This document shows positions 1,347 to 11,164 of a DNA stretch of 20,000 nucleotides, one piece after another. The stretch comes from an uncultured virus (IMG/VR IMGVR_UViG_3300025789_000002) (lineage: Duplodnaviria; Heunggongvirae; Uroviricota; Caudoviricetes). Under the pieces are notes generated by a model. The model was not told where the DNA came from, did no database searches, and saw only the letters and a program-made list of their open reading frames with translations. The position numbers and the translations under genes were made by a program. Where the stretch lies: the IMG/VR virus record IMGVR_UViG_3300025789_000002, one strand, 5' to 3'. Positions within the stretch are counted from its first letter, which is position 1. Each line of letters starts with the position of its first letter.

Positions 1347-1421
1347 GGGGGGTAGTCCGTTTGGTTTCGGCTACTCCTTTCGAGTGATATTTGGTCCCGC
1401 CGTAAAAAGCGGGACTTTTTT
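1347..1421 (+). ncRNA. Candidate small non-coding RNA (two hairpins, ending in an intrinsic terminator)
   Basis: Hairpin 1 is GGGGGGTAGTCCG/TTTGGTTT/CGGCTACTCCTTT (1347..1380). A linker follows, then the terminator hairpin and U-tract. A promoter-like element lies directly upstream. Confidence 0.3.
1393..1421 (+). terminator. Rho-independent terminator at the convergence of the two transcription units
   Basis: Perfect 7-bp stem GTCCCGC (1394..1400) / loop CGTAAAAA / GCGGGAC (1409..1415), followed by TTTTTT. It lies just beyond the stop of the - strand giant gene, so it may also act weakly on that strand. Confidence 0.85.
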
Positions 1422-4400
1422 ATTCTTCAGAATACCCAAGCATCGGTGCTAGCTTGCCAATAGCCTTCTTATTAATGTTTACGCCACCTGTCATATTGGC
1501 TAAAGCACGCTGCATGTAACGACGTTTAATTGAAGCCTGTAATCCTTTTGCGTCAATCATATACTCAGGATTTGCTGTATCAAACTTAATAATCTTTTGC
1601 ATTACACGCTGTTGCATATCAGAATCACCGCTATCAAATGCCATAAAGAAAGCGTTTTCTAAGTCAGTCTTGCGTTGAGTAATTTCCATATCTTGGCTCT
1701 TCATTTCCATTGCAGCTTTTTGTTTTTGAGCTGTATCTTCTGGAGAGAAACCAAGCATTTGTTTTAAAGCGTCTCGTGCTGGAACGTTATCGTCTAGTGT
1801 GTCGCCCTTCATAGTTAGAGCTTTACCCTCTACTAAATACCTAGTACCGACAAAGATATTCTTAATACCGGCGGGTAACATAGCTTCAGCAGCACGTTCA
1901 TAGTGCCCGTCATTTAGACGTTTAAGCGCCTCGGCGTATCCTAGTGCAGCACCAGCTACAGGACCCATTAAGTTAGTCATAACATTTTGTAAATATTGCA
2001 CTTCATCTTGGCTTTTCTTAACGCTTGGGAACCACATATCGCTCATGTTAATACTCATACGGTCTGCAAAGTTTGCTCCAGTAGCCTGGGATAATACGCC
2101 ACGAGATATAGAGTCGCCGACAAACCCACCAAAATGCCTATTACACCAATTCTTAAACCAATTATCTGCATCAAATGGCTCGTCAGAATCACCAAAAGCA
2201 GCGTGGAAAGCTGATGCAATAGCAGAGAATAGGAAGTAGAAAGGCATACCAGATAGGCCAGCAGTAATCATAGTCATACCCATCATGCCCCAGAAAGATT
2301 CAATTGCTTCTTTCTTAATATCTTTTAGCTCAGCCTCTTTAGCTTTCATTAATTCAGCTTTGCGTGGGTCTTTTTCTACTTGCTTCGCATAGGCTTCTAA
2401 CTCAGTTTTCATGCCCCCGCCTAAGGAGTTATAGAATGTACGTGCCATTAGCACAGTCATTTGCTGTGGGTACATCTTAAACTGAGACACAATACTTACT
2501 AAGTTACCACGGAAGTAGCGGGGCTTATTAGCTGTGTTGTAGTTAAACATAGTCTTTTGAACTAGGTCACGTGCATCCTGAGTAGCTTTCTCAAATGCTT
2601 TTGCAGGGCTAAGAGTCTGTATGTGCTTAGCATAGGCTAGCTCAAACGTAGCCATGTATGTAGTTTCACGGTTGTATTTCTCAGCTGCATGGAATGGTAA
2701 GCTGGCATAGTACATGAACTTTTGGAAGCGCCCAGTATAGTCTGCTGATGGAGTATCACCAACGTGTGCGCTCTCATGACTAAGGGTTGTATCAATAGCA
2801 CCAAGCAACACACCTTTTTCATATGCATCGGCATAAGTCATTGCTACTTTGTTGGTCTGTCCGGTAGTCTCATCTACTTTATCTATTAGAATCTTTTTGC
2901 CGTTCTTGTCTAGCAATGGCATCTCGCTCATCTTAGAACGTGCTAGGGATAGGAATTCGTATTTACCAGTCTTATCATTAACAAAACCAGTTCCCCCTAA
3001 AAGCTTATTGTATTTTGCAAGCGCAGCCAAAACAGGCTTAGTGCCATACTTAGCTCGGGCAAATGGAATATAGATTCCAGGGATTGCCATCATGTTCACA
3101 ACAGCGGAAGCGGGCGAAGTTAAGAAATGTAAAAAGCCAAATTGTGTAATACCACGCACTATAGCGCTTTGCTTTGGCGGCTCAAGTACTGCAGTCTTTA
3201 AGTTTAGCTCTAATTCACGCACTAACGCACGATTTAATGCTGCTTCTTTACCATAAGGCATATCTCGTAAACGAATGCGTGCGGCTTCAACTGCGTTAAA
3301 TAACTGTGGCATATGTTCAAAGCGGGCCCGTTGATACGCAATACGGTATCTAGATTCTGCAAAAGCACGAAGCATATCCTCGCTCGCACCTTGAATGTTG
3401 TCACGATGTAGGAACATTTTGCGAATACTTTGGTTAGGTGCAATCTCTAGCACGTATTGATCCATGCTATCTTTCATAGCTTCACGAAGCGAATTAAGTT
3501 CGTTACCCACTGCAGTAGGGTCGGCAGCCACATCTTCTGTAGCCATATCAATACGTTCTTTTAGCCTATTAAGCTGAGCAATGTCAGATAAGCTAGATTT
3601 AGCAAGTTCTGTAAAACCCTCGCCAGTACGAAGTAAAGTATTAATATCCTCGTCTTTATATCCTTGTTTACGTTTATCTGCTTTTACTTGTTCTATACCA
3701 GCATTTCGTGCTGCAGCAGACTCGAACTGCATAAAGATTTTATCTTTACCTTTTCCAAACTGGAGCCAGTATTCTCCAAAACGTTTTAATGGGAAATAAG
3801 GACTAATAATTCCTTCTTGGATAGCTTTACGCTGCTCTAATGCAAGCCGCTTAATTTCTTTAGGGTCGGTGTTTTTAGCCTGCTCCCTTTCTACTAAACG
3901 TTTTTCTTGTATCTCTAAATACTCATCCATACGACGCTCGTAAAATGCACGGACATCTCTATAGATTTTCATTGCGATAGCGCCATCTTTACCTGATACT
4001 AACTTATTCCATGCTTCTTGCGTTTTAGGGAAGTTAGGCAAATCTTTAGCGTTATACCCACGGCTTGTTGGGTCTGGATCTATTTTGTTAATAGTAGCTT
4101 GTAGCATCATATGTGCTAATTGCTGAGATTTTTCTGGATTAGATTTAAGTAGCTCAGCCCATGCTCTAATAGGTTTGTCACCTTCTGCCATAATGCGATT
4201 ACGAGTAGCAATCATGGCGTCTATTTCATGCACATAAAGCTTAAACTGTGGTAATTCCTCGCCTGCTAAGTCTGTAAGTTGGTCAAGGGTCAATGCGCCG
4301 AGTAAATACTGACGGTAATGGTCGTTCACATTAGTAAAGAAGCTCTTTACGTTCGCTTTATTAACGTCTTTCCAATTTAGGCGGCCTTTAATTAAACGGC

Positions 4401-7400
4401 TCCAGTATCCAGAATTTTCTCCAGGGTTTAAGACAAAGTTTTCCTCGTGTACTCCACCTTTAGTTATTTTTGGCAGTTCATCTGATGTCTCGTTGGAGAA
4501 TATAGTAGAGTTTGTTGGGGTCGATGTGCTGCCTTTATTAGCAGAGAATATAACGTCGGCGTTAGCCATAGTATGGAATAGCACATTATCTGTGCCGAAA
4601 ATCTGTCCAACTAACTGAATGAATTTAGACCACATAGATTGGTCAGAACGCATAGTTGTTTTTAATTTGCGTAATTCTTTTTGGAATTCTGGATTACTAA
4701 ATGCTTCTGCTATAAACTCATGGATATTAGTAAATCCATACTGACCTTTATTAATTTTTGCCTTGGCATTCTGGTATAATATTTGGAGGTTACCGACTGC
4801 TCTGCGTTGTTTTTCATCTAATAATTCTGGATGGTCAATAGCCCAATGCGTAGCCGCATGAGAAATTTCATGTATAACAGTATGATTAGTATTCCCGCCT
4901 AAATTAGGGTTTATATTAATAGCATCTTGTATATCAAAATAAGAACCTGCTGCTCTTGTAAGAGTTTTATTAACATCGCTATACCTTTTAGCTAGGTCTG
5001 CTAAATCCTGAGCTATAGGGTTTAGGTCTACTTTTACTAGTTTGCCTTTTTCTGCAACTGCGCCACCAGCACGTATAAAATTAAAATAATACGCCAACAT
5101 TCTTATAGCTTCTGGATTATAGGTATCGAATTTAATCTGTACTGGCTCAAAATATTTTTTGTATGCGTCTGGGTAGTTCGCCTCAATATAGAGTAAAAAT
5201 CTTTCCCTCTGGCCTTTAACAGTATCTAAATAAGCTTTAACCAATTCATTTTGCTTATTAGAATATATATTAGTAGTTAACCCTAGTTCAGATAGACGTT
5301 TAGCGAACGCTGCTAGAAATTTGTTACCCTTAGTTTTGTAGAAGTTAAGCACACCCTTAAGGTTGTTATCTTTGATTGCTTGTTCTACTTCTGGATGCAA
5401 AGGTTTACGCAACGGGTCATCAGCAGATAGCTCGTTTTCTTTAGGGCTAGAGGTTACTTGGGCTTTTTGTTTTTGTTGTCTAAGTACGTGGTTATACACG
5501 CTTTCGGCAGTTATTTCGCCTTGGCGCCTATCATTGTTTGCCAGCTCTGGGTATTGTTTATTAAAAGCGTTAATAAAAGCAGCTCTTGCTTTACCAGACT
5601 TTACATTGCGGCTTTGGTTTTCTTGCCAAATTGGGTTTTGTGCTACATATAATTGTTCGCTTCTATCATATGCACGCTCGTCAGACTTTTCTAAGCGTTC
5701 AGTTTCATGCCCTACCGCAGTATTTAAAAGGGTTTGTAAGTGTTCTGGCATTGCGGCAGCAATATCACTTAACCGACTATCTTGTGCAGGTGCATTTAAT
5801 ATCGTAGGTAACTCTGATTTTATTTCTGGTGGGTTTAGGTTATTTAATTCTCTATCAGATGCTATTGATTTAACTGTTTTTACTGGGTTTCCATTTTCGT
5901 CAAAACCTTCAGGGTGTCCTTCTACATCAATTTCAATCTCGTACATATTCGTAAATTCAGAACCAGGACCTTCATCAAGCACTTTAGTTACTCGGGCTTT
6001 TTGTCCGGGGTATTGGTTTTGATTTACAATTGCGCCTGGCTTAAAGTAAGTCCACGGGCCAGTAGATGTTTGATATGTCTCTCTATCATTTTGTTCTTGA
6101 TTAGCTGGAGTAGTTTGCGCCGAGGTTATTTGCTGCTCTAGGTTCTTTTTAAAATCTAAAGTGTCTACATGTTGCTGTAGCATTGCAACTTCTTCAGGGG
6201 TTTGTGCTTCTCTTGTAGTTTGTTGTGCTTCTACAGGAGCAATAGCAGTCTTAATAGCCTCAATGGTATTAGCCATCTTAGCGCCTTTTTTAACTTCAAG
6301 GCCAAGGTCTCTTGCAATACTATTAACTGTTCTAGCTGTTGGTATTAGTGTTTTGTCATCTATAGAAGCTAAGTAGTTTGTTGCCCGTGCTTTTACTTCA
6401 GGGTCTAATGCACCACGCTCTGTTTCTTCTCCTGCTGTAGTAACGCCAGCAGCTCGTTGATCTCCACCCAAGCTTCCAGTGGTAGATGTTGCAGTTCCAG
6501 TGGCGGGCTCGTTACTTCCTTCTTGCTCAGATACTTGAAGGCCAGGTTCAGCTGTTCCGGTGTCAGTTCCAATATCTGCATATTCTTCCCCTTTATTTTC
6601 TTCCGCCGCTGCAGGTTCTTCTGCCATAACTTTGAAGTGGTTATCGACAATTGTATCTAATTGGTCTTTAGTTGGCTTCTCGCCTTTAGCTTCTAAGTCC
6701 TGTTTATATATGTCTCTAACTTCGGCACGTTGCTGCTTCTCGTCTAAGTGACCTTTAAGGGATTGAACACCTTTATTAACACTAGCTCCAGCGCCCATCA
6801 TAATACCGCCTTGGACTACTGTAGCAGCTAATGTATCTGCAGCACCTTCAAAAAACTCTTGTAACCCAGCTTCTGGGTTCATGCCATAGCCTTTATCTAC
6901 TGCAAACTGTCCAGCATAGGTAAGCTCTTCTCCAGGTACTTCTCTTGCCAGCGCTTTAGCAAAGTATCCCGCAAGCTCTTTAGTAGGTACGCCTTTAGCA
7001 GAAGCTTTCAGTGCTTTAATCTCTGCACCTAAACCAAACTTTTCACCGACAACTTCTAATGTTCCGTATAAGCCTGAGCGAATCGTACTGTCTTTTAAAT
7101 CTAAACCTTCTCGGCGGCTCTCATCATAAGTCTGACCAAACGATTGGACAAACATTCCTGTTAACGCAGTACCACCAGCAATAGCTTCAGCAGCGCCAGC
7201 CGTAGCAAGAGCAGCACCACCAATTACAGGAGCAGCGGCAGCGGCACCGATACCACCAATAATAAGAGGTACTTGTTGAATAATAGAACTTACAGCGCCT
7301 TCTACAATTTTAGCTGCGTGACTTTCTGGACTACCTAAAGTTTTTGTAACCGCATCAAGATGGTCAAGATTCTTTTGGTTATCAGTATTATCTAAGCCAA

Positions 7401-7791
7401 GAATATCGTTACCAAAGCGCTTCAAACCACCAAAACTTTGTTCGACACCGACAGCAGCTTGTTTTCCTGCACGTTTTAAGAGGCGGCTAGCATAATCAAT
7501 ATTCCCCATTTCAGAGGAAATACCATATTCTTCTTTGAGCTTTGCTTCTTCTTCTGGGTCTAATTTTGTTTCTTGTTTGGCAGCATCGTATCTACCTAGC
7601 TCATCAGGTTTTGGTGCTTTAGTATCTACAGGTACTCCCCCAAACTGCGCAGCTAAATCGTTAACAGCTGGTTTTTCTTCGACAGGTTTCCCTCCGAACT
7701 TAGCGGCTAATTCATTTACTTCAGTTTTCTTAGGCTCTTCGGCTTCTACTGGCTTACCACCGAACTTAGCAGCTAATTCATTAAGATCCAT
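1420..7791 (-). CDS. Giant virion ejection / large polyvalent protein (2123 aa) with a zincin-like metallopeptidase motif and a PLxRFG motif
   Basis: 2123-aa ORF at the end of the structural operon. It has N-terminal repeats, a hydrophobic Gly/Ala-rich segment, HEISH (4858..4872) with downstream HEFIAE (4705..4722), and YFPLKRFGEY (PLKRFG at 3775..3792). The C-terminus is helical and hydrophobic, as in podovirus internal virion proteins. Confidence 0.8.
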   Translation of the reverse strand: MDLNELAAKFGGKPVEAEEPKKTEVNELAAKFGGKPVEEKPAVNDLAAQFGGVPVDTKAPKPDELGRYDAAKQETKLDPEEEAKLKEEYGISSEMGNIDYASRLLKRAGKQAAVGVEQSFGGLKRFGNDILGLDNTDNQKNLDHLDAVTKTLGSPESHAAKIVEGAVSSIIQQVPLIIGGIGAAAAAPVIGGAALATAGAAEAIAGGTALTGMFVQSFGQTYDESRREGLDLKDSTIRSGLYGTLEVVGEKFGLGAEIKALKASAKGVPTKELAGYFAKALAREVPGEELTYAGQFAVDKGYGMNPEAGLQEFFEGAADTLAATVVQGGIMMGAGASVNKGVQSLKGHLDEKQQRAEVRDIYKQDLEAKGEKPTKDQLDTIVDNHFKVMAEEPAAAEENKGEEYADIGTDTGTAEPGLQVSEQEGSNEPATGTATSTTGSLGGDQRAAGVTTAGEETERGALDPEVKARATNYLASIDDKTLIPTARTVNSIARDLGLEVKKGAKMANTIEAIKTAIAPVEAQQTTREAQTPEEVAMLQQHVDTLDFKKNLEQQITSAQTTPANQEQNDRETYQTSTGPWTYFKPGAIVNQNQYPGQKARVTKVLDEGPGSEFTNMYEIEIDVEGHPEGFDENGNPVKTVKSIASDRELNNLNPPEIKSELPTILNAPAQDSRLSDIAAAMPEHLQTLLNTAVGHETERLEKSDERAYDRSEQLYVAQNPIWQENQSRNVKSGKARAAFINAFNKQYPELANNDRRQGEITAESVYNHVLRQQKQKAQVTSSPKENELSADDPLRKPLHPEVEQAIKDNNLKGVLNFYKTKGNKFLAAFAKRLSELGLTTNIYSNKQNELVKAYLDTVKGQRERFLLYIEANYPDAYKKYFEPVQIKFDTYNPEAIRMLAYYFNFIRAGGAVAEKGKLVKVDLNPIAQDLADLAKRYSDVNKTLTRAAGSYFDIQDAININPNLGGNTNHTVIHEISHAATHWAIDHPELLDEKQRRAVGNLQILYQNAKAKINKGQYGFTNIHEFIAEAFSNPEFQKELRKLKTTMRSDQSMWSKFIQLVGQIFGTDNVLFHTMANADVIFSANKGSTSTPTNSTIFSNETSDELPKITKGGVHEENFVLNPGENSGYWSRLIKGRLNWKDVNKANVKSFFTNVNDHYRQYLLGALTLDQLTDLAGEELPQFKLYVHEIDAMIATRNRIMAEGDKPIRAWAELLKSNPEKSQQLAHMMLQATINKIDPDPTSRGYNAKDLPNFPKTQEAWNKLVSGKDGAIAMKIYRDVRAFYERRMDEYLEIQEKRLVEREQAKNTDPKEIKRLALEQRKAIQEGIISPYFPLKRFGEYWLQFGKGKDKIFMQFESAAARNAGIEQVKADKRKQGYKDEDINTLLRTGEGFTELAKSSLSDIAQLNRLKERIDMATEDVAADPTAVGNELNSLREAMKDSMDQYVLEIAPNQSIRKMFLHRDNIQGASEDMLRAFAESRYRIAYQRARFEHMPQLFNAVEAARIRLRDMPYGKEAALNRALVRELELNLKTAVLEPPKQSAIVRGITQFGFLHFLTSPASAVVNMMAIPGIYIPFARAKYGTKPVLAALAKYNKLLGGTGFVNDKTGKYEFLSLARSKMSEMPLLDKNGKKILIDKVDETTGQTNKVAMTYADAYEKGVLLGAIDTTLSHESAHVGDTPSADYTGRFQKFMYYASLPFHAAEKYNRETTYMATFELAYAKHIQTLSPAKAFEKATQDARDLVQKTMFNYNTANKPRYFRGNLVSIVSQFKMYPQQMTVLMARTFYNSLGGGMKTELEAYAKQVEKDPRKAELMKAKEAELKDIKKEAIESFWGMMGMTMITAGLSGMPFYFLFSAIASAFHAAFGDSDEPFDADNWFKNWCNRHFGGFVGDSISRGVLSQATGANFADRMSINMSDMWFPSVKKSQDEVQYLQNVMTNLMGPVAGAALGYAEALKRLNDGHYERAAEAMLPAGIKNIFVGTRYLVEGKALTMKGDTLDDNVPARDALKQMLGFSPEDTAQKQKAAMEMKSQDMEITQRKTDLENAFFMAFDSGDSDMQQRVMQKIIKFDTANPEYMIDAKGLQASIKRRYMQRALANMTGGVNINKKAIGKLAPMLGYSEE
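6405..6581 (-). CDS. Putative overprinted small protein (58 aa) in an alternate frame of the giant gene
   Basis: AAAGGGGAAGAAT-ATG at 6581 gives a Shine-Dalgarno with 6-nt spacing. Translation: MQILELTPEQLNLAFKYLSKKEVTSPPLELQHLPLEAWVEINELLALLQQEKKQSVVH, stop TAG at 6405..6407. It has an amphipathic helical pattern, while the host frame here is a low-complexity linker. Confidence 0.55.
   Translation of the reverse strand: MQILELTPEQLNLAFKYLSKKEVTSPPLELQHLPLEAWVEINELLALLQQEKKQSVVH
7624..7782 (-). repeat. Three N-terminal peptide repeats N(E/D)LAA(K/Q)FGG(K/V)PV(E/D)
   Basis: Seen in the translation. DNA copies CCGAACTTAGC(A/G)GCTAATTCATT lie at 7694..7716 and 7760..7782, with a diverged copy near 7638..7662. 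Confidence 0.9.
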
Positions 7792-7794
7792 TAA

Positions 7795-10704
7795 TTACCC
7801 GTTTTGTTTTTGTTTCGCAGCCTTATAAGCATCTAAGCTCTTTTGGTCAGGGAATACGTGTCCATCCATTATAAGTGAAGATTGACCTATAGGTGGTGGG
7901 GCATTTCCGGCAACAACTTGTTTTTGATATCTATCACGAATAGGTGCAGCAATCTCTTCAATTTGTTGTTGTAATGCCTTACGTTTTTCTGGGTCTTTTT
8001 CAGTTTGTAATTGCAGCTGCAACATACCCGTAGCTTTATCAACAGCAGCATCAGCCGCCTTATTAGAAGATATATCTGAAGCTTCCATACGTGGTGCATT
8101 TTTAACTGCGGCGTATGCTTCCCAATCAGTTGCTCCTGGATGTGTTTTCTTATACATTTCCATAGCTTGTATCTCAAGGTTTGTGGCTTTGCCTGAAGAA
8201 GCAGCATTAATACCAGCAACTTTTTCAGCGCTAGCAGCACGCATTTGCTCAATATCTCTATCTTTCTTAAGCTTCTCAGCTTCTTCATAAGACTTAGTAG
8301 CACCTTGCCAATCACCTTCAGCAGCTTTGCGATTAGATTCCTCAAGGGCAGCTTGGCTTTGGGCATTAGCAAGTTTAGCTTTATCAGCAGAATCTACGGC
8401 TTGAGCATACCCAGTAGCACCAACACCAACAGCATGCGCAGCAGGTTTAAGTAATCCAGCAAGGCCTGTACCTGTAGCAGGAGTTTGTGCAAAATCTAAG
8501 AAGCCTTGCGCAATAGCCAAACGTTTTTGGAAATCAGACTTGTCCGGTTCTGCAGCTTGTTGTGCTTCTAATGCAGACATTGCTGATTTAGACTTAGCGC
8601 CAACACCTGGCTCAATGCCACGAGATTTAAAGTAGTTTTCTTGCTCAGCTAAATATGCTTCTTTAGAGCCAGGGGCTGGAGCATTAGGGTCTTGTACCTC
8701 ATCACCTGCAGCGAAAGCTAAAATACCGCCGCCAGCCATACGAACTGGAGAACTCATACCTTGGAACGCACCGCCACCACCTTGAGCAATACCTGATAGG
8801 CGTGCATCCATCGGCATTTGCTGTGGATTCTGTGGTGGGGGAGGTGGCATACCAGCTTGAGCAATAGCTTGTCCTGCACCAGGAATTTGACGTAGTCGGT
8901 TTTGGTCAGCTTGAACACCTTGGAATAGCTGGCGTTCGTCTGGGTTTACTGAAGGGTCAGTGATGCGCTTTTGTAACTGTTGTGAGCTTAGACCTTGAGC
9001 GTCATTTTGTAATTGAGCTTGATTAATTAAAGTACCATATTTAAAACCCGGAACTTCTCCACCAGCTTTCATGCCAATAACGCCGCCTTCTTTCTTAGTA
9101 GCGCCGGCCAATGCAGCGCCAGCACCGAGTAAACCAATACCAGATTGAACTGCAGTAGGTTGTGCTTGATATGATGCTGTGCTTGATTGCTGCATTGGTA
9201 AACCACGTAACATAGCATTGAGCTGACCCAATTGCATAAATGGATACTGTTGTGCAGTAGCATAGTTTTGAACAGCTTGATTGATAACGTTTTGCTGTTG
9301 AGTCTGCTGCTGCGCACCCTGTGTAGATTGCGTATTAATAATACCTTGTTGGGCTGCAAGATCCTGAGCACCGATATTAGCAAGATTAGATGCCTGTGCA
9401 CCCGCTTGAGCATATCCAGCTTGTTGTGCGCCGACGCCAGATAGACCAGCTTGAGCGCCTTGAATACCTAGGCTACCCGCTTGTTGTGCGCCTTGAAGTC
9501 CTTGTGCTGTACCTTGCATACCTAATTGGCCTTGCGCTTGCGCACCAGCTAAACCAGCATTTGCACCAGAGATACCAAGTTGACCGGCCTGTGCTGCACC
9601 AGAAAGACCCATGCCATAGCCTTGCATAGATTGCGCACCAGCTTGTTGAGCACCTTGTAATCCTTGAGCAGTACCAGCTAAACCTAATTGGCCTGCTTGG
9701 TTAGCACCAGCTAGTCCTTGTGAAATTCCTTGTTGGGCTTGAGCGTTACCACTTAGAGCCGCTTGATTAGCAGCATTCATTTGATTCTGAGCATTAGTAA
9801 AGGCTGTGTTATATCCTTGACCAATAATTTGATTTTGGGCCAGCATTTGATTTTGCTGATTTAAGCCTTGCATTAAAGCATTACGTGAGCCACCAAAAGC
9901 CCCTTGTTGAGTAGCTTGGCCTTGCTGCGCTGCACCTTGCATACCATATTGTTGCGCAGCTAATTGTAATTGCGGAGCTAAAGATTGCTGAATATACGGG
10001 TTCATGTAAGCGCCAATAGCGCTTGGGTTTGTTGATTGTTGGCCTAAACTTGCACCAATTTGAGCGCCTTGTTGTCCTTGTCCAACACCCATACCACCAA
10101 GCATATTAGACATTCCAGCAGCCTGCTGCCCTGTTTGCGCACCCATACCACCATACATACTTGATTGGCCTGCGGCCTGTTGGCCAGCCATAGAACCTAG
10201 ACCGCCATATACATTAGATAATCCTGCAGCTTGTTGTCCTGTAGCCGCACCCATACCACCATACATACCAGCTTGTTGCCCAGCTTGTTGGCCAGTAGCA
10301 GCACCAAGATTACCATAAGCGCTAGACATACCAGCAGCTTGTTGACCAGCCATATTACCCATTGCGCCATAGCCTGCAGCCTGGCCTGTTGTACCCAATG
10401 CACCTAAAGCAGAAGTACCAGCTATGTTAGAAGCCGCACCATATTGACCTGGAACCTGTAAGTTAGCCGCTGAAGATTGCGCTTGTTGCTGTAGTGGAGA
10501 AAAGCTAGCTACATAATCTTGTGGGTTAGTACTATATGGGTTGTAGGCGTTAAACCCAGTCATATCAGGGTTAAATACTTGGGTTTGCGCAGCCTGCAAC
10601 ATATTCATTACATACGGCTGTGCGTAGTCAGGAATATTAGTATTCGTTACCGTTGTATTTGTCGGTGCTGCTGATGCTGATGGAGCTGATGATCCGCCAC
10701 TCAT
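7795..10704 (-). CDS. Putative DNA ejection / internal virion protein (969 aa), Gly/Gln/Ala-rich
   Basis: SD AGGA precedes the ATG. The protein has long G/Q/A heptad-like repeats, a hydrophobic GIGLLGAGAALAG segment and a coiled-coil-like C-terminal half. It lies between the GNAT gene and the giant ejection protein gene. Confidence 0.7.
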   Translation of the reverse strand: MSGGSSAPSASAAPTNTTVTNTNIPDYAQPYVMNMLQAAQTQVFNPDMTGFNAYNPYSTNPQDYVASFSPLQQQAQSSAANLQVPGQYGAASNIAGTSALGALGTTGQAAGYGAMGNMAGQQAAGMSSAYGNLGAATGQQAGQQAGMYGGMGAATGQQAAGLSNVYGGLGSMAGQQAAGQSSMYGGMGAQTGQQAAGMSNMLGGMGVGQGQQGAQIGASLGQQSTNPSAIGAYMNPYIQQSLAPQLQLAAQQYGMQGAAQQGQATQQGAFGGSRNALMQGLNQQNQMLAQNQIIGQGYNTAFTNAQNQMNAANQAALSGNAQAQQGISQGLAGANQAGQLGLAGTAQGLQGAQQAGAQSMQGYGMGLSGAAQAGQLGISGANAGLAGAQAQGQLGMQGTAQGLQGAQQAGSLGIQGAQAGLSGVGAQQAGYAQAGAQASNLANIGAQDLAAQQGIINTQSTQGAQQQTQQQNVINQAVQNYATAQQYPFMQLGQLNAMLRGLPMQQSSTASYQAQPTAVQSGIGLLGAGAALAGATKKEGGVIGMKAGGEVPGFKYGTLINQAQLQNDAQGLSSQQLQKRITDPSVNPDERQLFQGVQADQNRLRQIPGAGQAIAQAGMPPPPPQNPQQMPMDARLSGIAQGGGGAFQGMSSPVRMAGGGILAFAAGDEVQDPNAPAPGSKEAYLAEQENYFKSRGIEPGVGAKSKSAMSALEAQQAAEPDKSDFQKRLAIAQGFLDFAQTPATGTGLAGLLKPAAHAVGVGATGYAQAVDSADKAKLANAQSQAALEESNRKAAEGDWQGATKSYEEAEKLKKDRDIEQMRAASAEKVAGINAASSGKATNLEIQAMEMYKKTHPGATDWEAYAAVKNAPRMEASDISSNKAADAAVDKATGMLQLQLQTEKDPEKRKALQQQIEEIAAPIRDRYQKQVVAGNAPPPIGQSSLIMDGHVFPDQKSLDAYKAAKQKQNG
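9400..10400 (-). repeat. Low-complexity coding repeats (GMGAxTGQQAAG / QGLxGAQQAG units)
   Basis: Repeated peptide units in the 969-aa protein. DNA words such as CGCACCCATACCACCATACATAC recur near 10138 and 10246. Confidence 0.75.
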
Positions 10705-10705
10705 A

Positions 10706-11164
10706 TTAATTTCCTAACATTTTTGTAAATACTTTATCTGTTATTTTGTAACCTAAATATTCAAACAATCTTGAATTGTCTAAATGAATCTTCGTGTTCA
10801 CTACTATTCTTTGTACACCACGACGTTTTAAAGCATCTTCTGCGTACTGAAATAATCTAATACCAATCCTACCCTTGCGATATTCTTTTCTAACGAAGTA
10901 AATATCTTCTGTTGCTGTTACACAAGATTTATAATGCAAATGCGGGGACACAAAAAATATAATGTATCCAATTAACTCACCATCTGCTCTACAAGTAATA
11001 CACCGCAACATACCTGCCTGTGCTACACGCCTATACCCTTCATAATCTGGCTCTAGCGGAAATTCTTTAGTAACACTTAATTCTTCATAGTGGAGAGGTA
11101 AGAGTCGTTCAAATTCAGGTAAAAATCCAAAAGCATCTACATCTTCATAAACAATAGTGGTCAT
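10706..11164 (-). CDS. GNAT family N-acetyltransferase (152 aa)
   Basis: GNAT motif A-like IYFVRKEYRKGRIGIRLF, ELIGYIIF strand and C-terminal LFEYLGY. ATGA overlap with the upstream gene. Confidence 0.85.
   Translation of the reverse strand: MTTIVYEDVDAFGFLPEFERLLPLHYEELSVTKEFPLEPDYEGYRRVAQAGMLRCITCRADGELIGYIIFFVSPHLHYKSCVTATEDIYFVRKEYRKGRIGIRLFQYAEDALKRRGVQRIVVNTKIHLDNSRLFEYLGYKITDKVFTKMLGN

Follow-up and report, generated by a model that had tools for sequence, protein, structure and literature searches.

A short open reading frame (ORF) that lies entirely inside a much longer gene of a tailed phage may be a gene in its own right or a by-product of the frame that surrounds it. This question was raised by a 20,000-nucleotide (nt) stretch of DNA from an uncultured virus of the Caudoviricetes (IMG/VR record IMGVR_UViG_3300025789_000002), which at its full length is referred to as the window. 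A first-pass annotation of the window had pointed to a hidden ORF of 58 codons inside the gene of a giant protein of 2123 amino acids (aa). A comparison with related loci indicates that the small ORF is very probably a real, unannotated protein gene, and a probability of about 85% is assigned to the reading that the segment is genuinely dual-coding and that a separate protein of ~57 aa, the predicted product, is started internally within the giant gene.

The Small ORF within the Window

The segment in question and the gene that contains it are described by four features:

6405-6581, minus strand: candidate embedded small gene of 58 codons (ATG at 6581-6579, TAG stop at 6407-6405) in the +1 frame of the giant gene
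6593-6588, minus strand: Shine-Dalgarno (SD) sequence AAGGGG, 6 nt 5' of the ATG, with the spacer AAGAAT at 6587-6582
6403-6582, minus strand: main-frame spacer rich in G/A/T/P/V/S (~aa 404-463) that overlaps the small gene; the frame is open and the protein is not conserved
1420-7791, minus strand: host gene for the 2123-aa giant polyvalent or internal virion-type protein, with Pfam LPD39 and PHROG matches

The small ORF is wholly nested within 1420-7791, on the same strand and in a different frame, which is the arrangement of an embedded gene. Position 1 of the alternate codons corresponds to position 2 of the main codons. Much of what the first-pass annotation had read from the window was confirmed: the sequence and its translation contain the same-strand, alternate-frame ORF of 58 aa with its own SD sequence and ATG, the ORF listing holds just a longer version that starts without an ATG (81 aa, from a TTG at 6650), and the main frame underneath the small ORF, which translates as YADIGTDTGTAEPGLQVSEQEGSNEPATGTATSTTGSLGGDQRAAGVTTAGEETERGAL, is a low-complexity linker that is G/T/E/S-rich in the window.

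Within the window alone the small ORF is unremarkable because of its chance level and because longer alternate-frame ORFs are present. When the codons were redrawn such that the main protein was preserved, the alternate frame was open over the length of the ORF in 8% of the redraws of the window sequence and was open with a start codon at the site in 4.6%. Alternate-frame ORFs of 114-219 aa, longer than the small ORF, occur elsewhere in the window; they include an antisense ORF of 219 aa inside the giant gene (5363-6022, plus strand) and two same-strand ORFs in a 969-aa gene (161 aa at 7887-8372 and 114 aa at 9069-9413, both minus strand). The significance of the small ORF therefore comes from its relatives. 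Contigs assembled from four freshwater DNA runs were identical to the window wherever they covered the region 5900-7100 and contained no variants. One of the runs, X10, additionally contained a contig of 14.7 kb whose depth was much higher (42) and that matches only the 37 bases at 6541-6577, with five mismatches. The contig probably stems from a further phage in that sample, one that carries the small-gene family, because the match falls on the most conserved part, the start of the small gene.

Retention of the Small ORF in Related Loci

Related loci were retrieved in two ways that are blind to the small ORF. The second of these made use of a domain that precedes the overlap:

6730-7656, minus strand: conserved all-helical N-terminal domain of the giant protein (aa 46-354; alignments A5 and A8)

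The viral retrieval drew on residues 1-700 of the giant protein, from which six peptide patterns were used, all outside the overlap, and it returned nine loci (L001-L009). A hidden Markov model of the small peptide, built from the window, L001, and L012-L015 only, matched a +1-frame ORF in each of the nine viral loci (9/9, E-values of 1e-34 to 2e-6), always directly after the N-terminal domain. The metagenome retrieval was based on the N-terminal-domain alignment A5 and returned 30 loci, 24 of which contain the small ORF; of the six loci without it, L039 and L050 stop short of the site where it would be expected. Several of the metagenome loci share contigs with viral loci, and the new ones are L025, L026, L029, L036, L042, L045, L047-L049, L051, and L052. 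A diverse alignment (A4) was unsuited to locus scans, for which A5 and A3 were used.

Scans with the small peptide reached further giant genes (L012-L015 and L021-L023) whose N-terminal domains were not matched to that of the window by phmmer. The ORF is intact in these loci (59-65 aa), and nucleotide conservation extends from a few bases 5' of the ATG to the stop codon between flanks that cannot be aligned. In IMG/VR, 314 stretches match the commonest subfamily (A7), of which 80 loci were kept, and in all of these (80/80) a 57-aa ORF lies within a longer ORF of 600 to >2000 aa and is read in its +1 frame.

Searched against a protein database, A6 (an alignment of 25 sequences) matched 176 predicted "hypothetical proteins" at E ≤ 0.01, none with a Pfam domain and most of them 56-57 or 69 aa long. 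A representative search returned 354 clusters at E ≤ 1e-3, 80 of them at E ≤ 1e-10, and nearly all matches within the 354 clusters end at the C-terminus of the protein. Two of the long database versions, P0214 (163 aa) and P0173 (116 aa), lack the usual stop and continue beyond it, and the upstream portions of others resemble out-of-frame junk. The small protein is present in sequence databases as unnamed hypothetical proteins only. No match to cultured relatives was found in the "phages" collection (blastn and tblastn of the region, tblastn of the member P0003), bacterial genome contigs contained no match to the small-peptide alignment, and full-text literature searches found no report of the small gene.

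Translation Start Signals

The start signals were compared among 87 distinct versions of the small ORF. A core SD sequence (-17 to -4) is present in 83 out of the 87 versions compared with 7.0% of 3804 control ATGs within the same loci, and a strong 5-mer SD sequence in 70 out of 87 compared with 2.8% of the controls. The distance between SD sequence and start codon has a mode of 6 nt; of the 79 versions that have GGAG or GAGG, 61 display a spacing of 6-7 nt. The SD sequence is kept despite differing main-frame residues and, in L004-L006, with the phase of the main frame shifted by one base. An ATG was picked in 86 out of 87 versions by a script that prefers ATG; the canonical start site is GTG in L045 and L106, with GGAGG 6 nt upstream, and ATA followed by TTG in L115, L116, and L121. 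The ORF is 55-70 aa long (57 aa in 59 of the 87 versions), and its stop codon is located in the same alignment column (TAG in 53 versions, TAA in 31, and TGA in three). Across the 87 versions, the SD sequences and start codons thus provide the embedded frame with translation-initiation signals of its own. The conservation of SD sequence, ATG, and open frame in diverged relatives, which the first-pass annotation had named as a check, holds in the nine viral loci, in 24 of the 30 metagenome loci and, for the SD sequence, in 83 of the 87 versions.

Selection on the Two Reading Frames

Variability at the three codon positions separates the two frames within the overlap. The mean pairwise differences at alternate positions 1, 2, and 3 are 0.456, 0.327, and 0.544 among 26 distinct ORFs and 0.404, 0.284, and 0.494 among 86 distinct ORFs. 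The N-terminal domain served as a control and displays the normal pattern for the main frame (0.361, 0.259, and 0.570 at main positions 1, 2, and 3). The wobble position of the host gene is the most constrained site of the overlap because it coincides with alternate position 2. Selection ratios were calculated by an OLGenie-style comparison of site classes:

26 distinct ORFs: alternate-frame dNN/dNS 0.40 (bootstrap 0.26-0.59; 0 out of 1000 reached 1), main-frame dNN/dSN 1.45 (1.12-1.91)
86 sequences: alternate-frame dNN/dNS 0.32 (0.21-0.46), main-frame dNN/dSN 1.28
60-sequence subfamily: alternate-frame dNN/dNS 0.21 (0.13-0.32), main-frame dNN/dSN 1.19

Purifying selection on the alternate frame, likewise named in advance as a check of the proposed gene, is evident from these dNN/dNS values of 0.21-0.40, and the pattern of position variability agrees. 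The amino acid identity in the alternate frame is higher than in the main frame in every pair compared (325/325) and averages 43% in the alternate frame and 26% in the main frame over identical nucleotides. In the main frame of the overlap, constraint appears to be undetectable, rather than zero, at the level of these comparisons.

The reverse redraw addressed the continuity of the giant frame. When codons were redrawn with the small protein preserved and with the codon usage of each locus, the giant frame was open in an average of 3.3% of the redraws (0.4% for the window). The actual giant frame is open in 86 of the 87 versions, and the 87th (L051) runs off the end of the locus. The giant frame is open far above the random expectation, which argues that the segment is dual-coded. 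Judging from these comparisons, one frame (that of the small ORF) is selected for its sequence and the other (that of the giant protein) for its continuity. The composition of the main frame in the overlap (G 17%, A 14%, T 12%, P 11%, and V 11%) arises because a protein rich in L, E, and Q (L 21.5%, E 12%, and Q 11.5%) is read there one base earlier.

The Predicted Small Protein

The AlphaFold2 (AF2) model of the small protein, based on A6, has a mean predicted local distance difference test (pLDDT) score of 75 and a predicted template modeling (pTM) score of 0.51. Helices are predicted at residues 2-5, 8-19, and 35-55 and a loop with a conserved PP at residues 20-34, such that the earlier reading of the product as a two-helix protein agrees with the model (helices 8-19 and 35-55). 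Five residues are invariant in an 86-sequence alignment (A13, L17, L29, W37, and L44; numbers in the 58-aa protein of the window are one higher: A14, L18, L30, W38, and L45), a further five are conserved at 98-99% (L5, P25, L32, L47, and E50), and P26 is conserved at 95%. All 86 distinct versions are acidic, with a net charge of -1 to -8 and an isoelectric point (pI) of 4.05-5.69 (5.2 for the 58-aa protein of the window). The peptide of the window contains no Cys and no hydrophobic N-terminal segment.

Thirteen members scanned against Pfam-A and PHROGs v4 displayed no significant family match (best E-values of 0.06 and 0.029, respectively, each from a single member), and no match was found among 25 members scanned against NCBIfam 20 or for the small protein in a PDB sequence profile search and in the Protein Atlas. 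Fold searches with the model gave best Foldseek E-values of 2.1 (PDB) and 1.3 (BFVD), and the best Z-score of a wide VIA-align search was 5.0, too low to be meaningful for a helical model.

A Model of Internal Initiation

The conserved signals and the selection pattern can be combined into the following model. The late mRNA of the giant gene would carry an internal SD sequence and ATG in the +1 frame, within the spacer that follows the N-terminal helical domain. Ribosomes that start at the internal ATG would produce a separate acidic protein of ~57 aa (58 aa in the window), predicted to form a two-helix hairpin with a proline-rich loop. Selection would act on the amino acid sequence of the small protein, the giant frame would just have to be free of stop codons there, and across the overlap the giant protein would contain a passive tether rich in G/A/T/P/V. 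A scan for promoters and terminators around the small ORF returned counts at the level of shuffled sequence. Because no separate promoter signal rises above chance, the small ORF is most simply seen as co-expressed with the giant gene, as the first-pass annotation had proposed.

Several points weigh against this model. Four metagenome loci (L037, L038, L040, and L041) truly lack the small ORF and instead contain a P/A/E/K-rich continuation and other downstream modules; the N-terminal domains of these loci (~2700-3300) display 42-50% identity. As four homologues of the N-terminal domain do without it, the small gene is, as far as the sequences indicate, dispensable for some giant proteins. Overall, the small ORF was found in 128 out of 134 sources, a count in which most positives were retrieved with the small peptide itself and many are duplicates, so that L001-L009 and the 30 metagenome loci represent the unbiased samples. 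The sequences that enter the selection analysis are related, and the bootstraps resample columns and not lineages. The dN/dS-type ratios are rough because the NS sites are near saturation (d of 1.2-1.5), and the main-frame dNN/dSN values above 1 arise partly because changes at alternate position 2 are harsher than changes at position 1. Translation of the ORF by internal initiation is inferred from the sequence, and a search of sequencing runs turned up no RNA run that contains the stretch. That the product would serve the giant protein as its own partner or chaperone is the best guess at its function, a tentative one, and should be read as a guess.

Alternative Explanations

The retention of the ORF could be explained without a separate protein if ribosomes entered the alternate frame from the giant frame by programmed +1 frameshifting, which would produce a truncated N-terminal-domain protein with a helical tail of 57 aa. 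SD-like sequences are able to stimulate frameshifting, as in prfB and dnaX, and in the window and in L001 no alternate-frame stop occurs over the 25 codons that precede the ATG. However, an alternate-frame stop codon lies 0-4 codons 5' of the start in L005, L006, L009, L013-L015, L021, L048, and L049, such that in at least nine distinct loci the alternate frame is not open from an upstream shift site. The start codon is conserved as ATG (rarely GTG) although the main-frame residues at the site vary (Y/N/D followed by A/E), the SD-to-start spacing of 6-7 nt is the optimum for initiation, and no conserved slippery motif was noticed, though no formal search was made. Frameshift entry is disfavored because of the upstream stops and the conserved start codon and appears very unlikely. 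Slightly less probable still is the explanation that the conservation reflects a nucleic-acid element, either an RNA structure or a hinge at which the modules that make up the giant gene are shuffled by recombination, with the ORF as its by-product. A conserved nucleotide block between unalignable flanks would fit such an element, as would the mosaic nature of the surrounding giant proteins and the main-frame homology between the window and L001, which stops at residue 464 just past the ORF. An element of this kind does not account for the three-periodic variation in the alternate frame with the alternate wobble position as the most variable, for substitutions that occur mostly between similar residues, for the start, stop, length, and hydrophobic pattern that are kept at a mean nucleotide identity of ~55%, or for the SD sequence that is kept where the main-frame phase shifts by one base (L004-L006). 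A role as a hinge could exist alongside coding. The last explanation, a chance ORF without function, can point to the ~8% of window codon redraws with an open +1 frame and to the longer alternate-frame ORFs of the window; it is contradicted by all comparative data (retention, SD sequence, selection, and nesting) and retains a negligible probability.

If the small ORF encodes a separate protein, as favored here, two roles can be weighed. For a partner or chaperone devoted to the giant protein, two points can be cited: the small gene is always located downstream of a hydrophobic, Gly/Ala-rich helical N-terminal domain, and the predicted two-helix hairpin has a conserved hydrophobic face that would need a partner or a dimer. 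The small protein might shield the N-terminal domain or escort the giant protein into the capsid. A complex prediction for the N-terminal domain (A5) and the small protein (A6), run without controls and with a score of 0.00, spoke neither for nor against binding. The first-pass annotation had also considered an inhibitor of the metallopeptidase of the giant protein, a role that is unsupported; the metallopeptidase assignment is based on an HExxH motif at residue 974, for which no Pfam family was matched. About as likely as the partner or chaperone role, and as tentative, is an anti-defense or host-takeover factor, that is, a real protein that acts as an acidic mimic or inhibitor of a host protein and that is placed within the polyvalent gene so as to be co-expressed late and perhaps packaged. 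The uniform acidity of the small proteins is in agreement with this role, as are the match of the C-terminus of the host gene to a PHROG annotated as "DarB-like antirestriction" and the description of polyvalent proteins as carriers of conflict effectors by Iyer et al. (2017, PMC5512222). In addition, the tree of the small protein does not follow the N-terminal domain: the window peptide is 64-66% identical to the peptides of L012-L013, whose N-terminal domains phmmer does not match, whereas its identity to the peptides of L003 and L026, with N-terminal domains that are 58-64% identical, is no more than 34-39%. On the other side, no anti-defense or other family was matched in Pfam, PHROGs, and NCBIfam (PADLOC was not scanned), the fold searches returned nothing meaningful, and a factor that acts early would be oddly placed in a late-expressed gene, except if it were packaged.

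The Host Gene and Possible Module Exchange

The host gene encodes a giant, multi-domain protein with an LPD-type domain in a virion/late-gene context and thus has the properties of a polyvalent protein. Pfam LPD39 is located at aa 1157-1302 (E = 1.3e-19), and the C-terminal third matches giant-protein PHROGs including phrog_10089, which carries the "DarB-like antirestriction" annotation. The neighboring genes encode an endolysin, virion structural proteins, a tail-spike-like protein, and a GNAT acetyltransferase, the last of these located between large virion-module genes (10706-11164, minus strand). The N-terminal domain is hydrophobic and Gly/Ala-rich, and an AF2 model of the N-terminal 404 aa is helical with low confidence (pLDDT of 53). 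The giant proteins start with three copies of a short motif that is lineage-specific: LAAKFGGKPVE-like in the window (7624-7791, minus strand), PFWxxDK in L013, LPEGFKLE in L014, and FSFEEA in L023. This triple motif may be a multivalent docking or packaging signal. The HExxH motif at residue 974 reads HEISH (~4870, minus strand) and lies in a domain that is conserved in L001 and L013-L015. This domain matched no Pfam family and displayed weak PDB sequence hits (E-values of 0.09 and 0.21), the latter to a phage "tetrameric ejection protein gp48."

In the main frame, the window and L001 are homologous (89% identity) up to residue 464 (~6400, minus strand; 4392 in L001), just past the stop codon of the small gene, and again further downstream. 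The similarity between small genes does not track the similarity between N-terminal domains. The small-gene cassette may be located at a junction of module exchange. A broader and speculative reading is that of an old and widespread "spacer gene" that is present in many uncultured tailed-phage contigs (a freshwater one in the case of the window): the tether of giant injected polyvalent proteins would carry a selected hairpin of ~57 aa that serves as an escort or as a co-delivered counter-defense factor, and the cassette would at the same time provide the homology hinge for module exchange.

Significance and Comparison with Known Systems

Standard gene callers and curated family libraries miss the small protein or leave it unnamed, and on comparative grounds the small gene is among the better-supported nested genes of tailed phages. 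A second gene can show up in a giant phage protein as a "disordered linker." This bears on the annotation of polyvalent and ejection proteins, on the interpretation of linker composition, and on engineering that recodes such genes. If the small protein were a chaperone or a co-delivered factor, it would offer a handle on the loading and ejection of giant internal proteins.

The closest formal parallel is Rz1 of phage lambda, a short gene nested in Rz that encodes an embedded spanin, a secreted lipoprotein with a lipobox Cys. As in Rz1/Rz, a short gene is enclosed by a longer one on the same strand; it is read in the +1 frame from a start codon and ribosome-binding site of its own, and both frames are functional. 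Unlike Rz1, the window peptide lacks a Cys and a hydrophobic N-terminus and is acidic and predicted to be helical, and unlike in Rz, the host frame does not encode a structured partner domain but a spacer, without detectable constraint, in a giant virion protein. The defining feature of an embedded spanin of the Rz1 type, a signal peptide with a lipobox Cys, is absent from the window peptide.

Small phages provide further examples of overprinting, such as gene B within A, E within D, and K in phiX174. The small gene resembles these in that an alternate-frame gene lies over a region of an older frame and displays frame-specific constraint, and it differs in its context of a double-stranded DNA tailed phage, where genome compression is no obvious driver, and in that the embedded frame and not the host frame bears nearly all of the constraint. 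A second product from an alternate frame of a late structural operon, as predicted here, is also known from gpG/gpGT of lambda, where it results from a programmed frameshift in phage structural genes; in contrast, the small ORF has independent initiation signals (SD sequence and ATG) and alternate-frame stops just upstream in many relatives. By analogy, the product may be compared with YscE/PscE, the small acidic helical-hairpin secretion chaperones of type III systems, with which it would share a size of ~60 aa, an acidic character, a predicted two-helix hairpin, and a substrate that later passes a narrow channel; however, neither sequence similarity nor significant fold similarity was found for the small protein.

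With the polyvalent proteins of Iyer et al. (2017, PMC5512222), the host gene shares its giant size, its multi-domain architecture with LPD39 and a C-terminus that matches a DarB-like PHROG, and its modular mosaic; a gene nested in an inter-domain spacer is not described in the main text of that study, which is silent on overlapping genes and on frameshifts and refers to a reading frame just once, with regard to adjacent ORFs. In kind, the small gene thus belongs with the same-strand nested genes, and its unusual trait is that the embedded frame is the constrained one and the host frame a passive tether.

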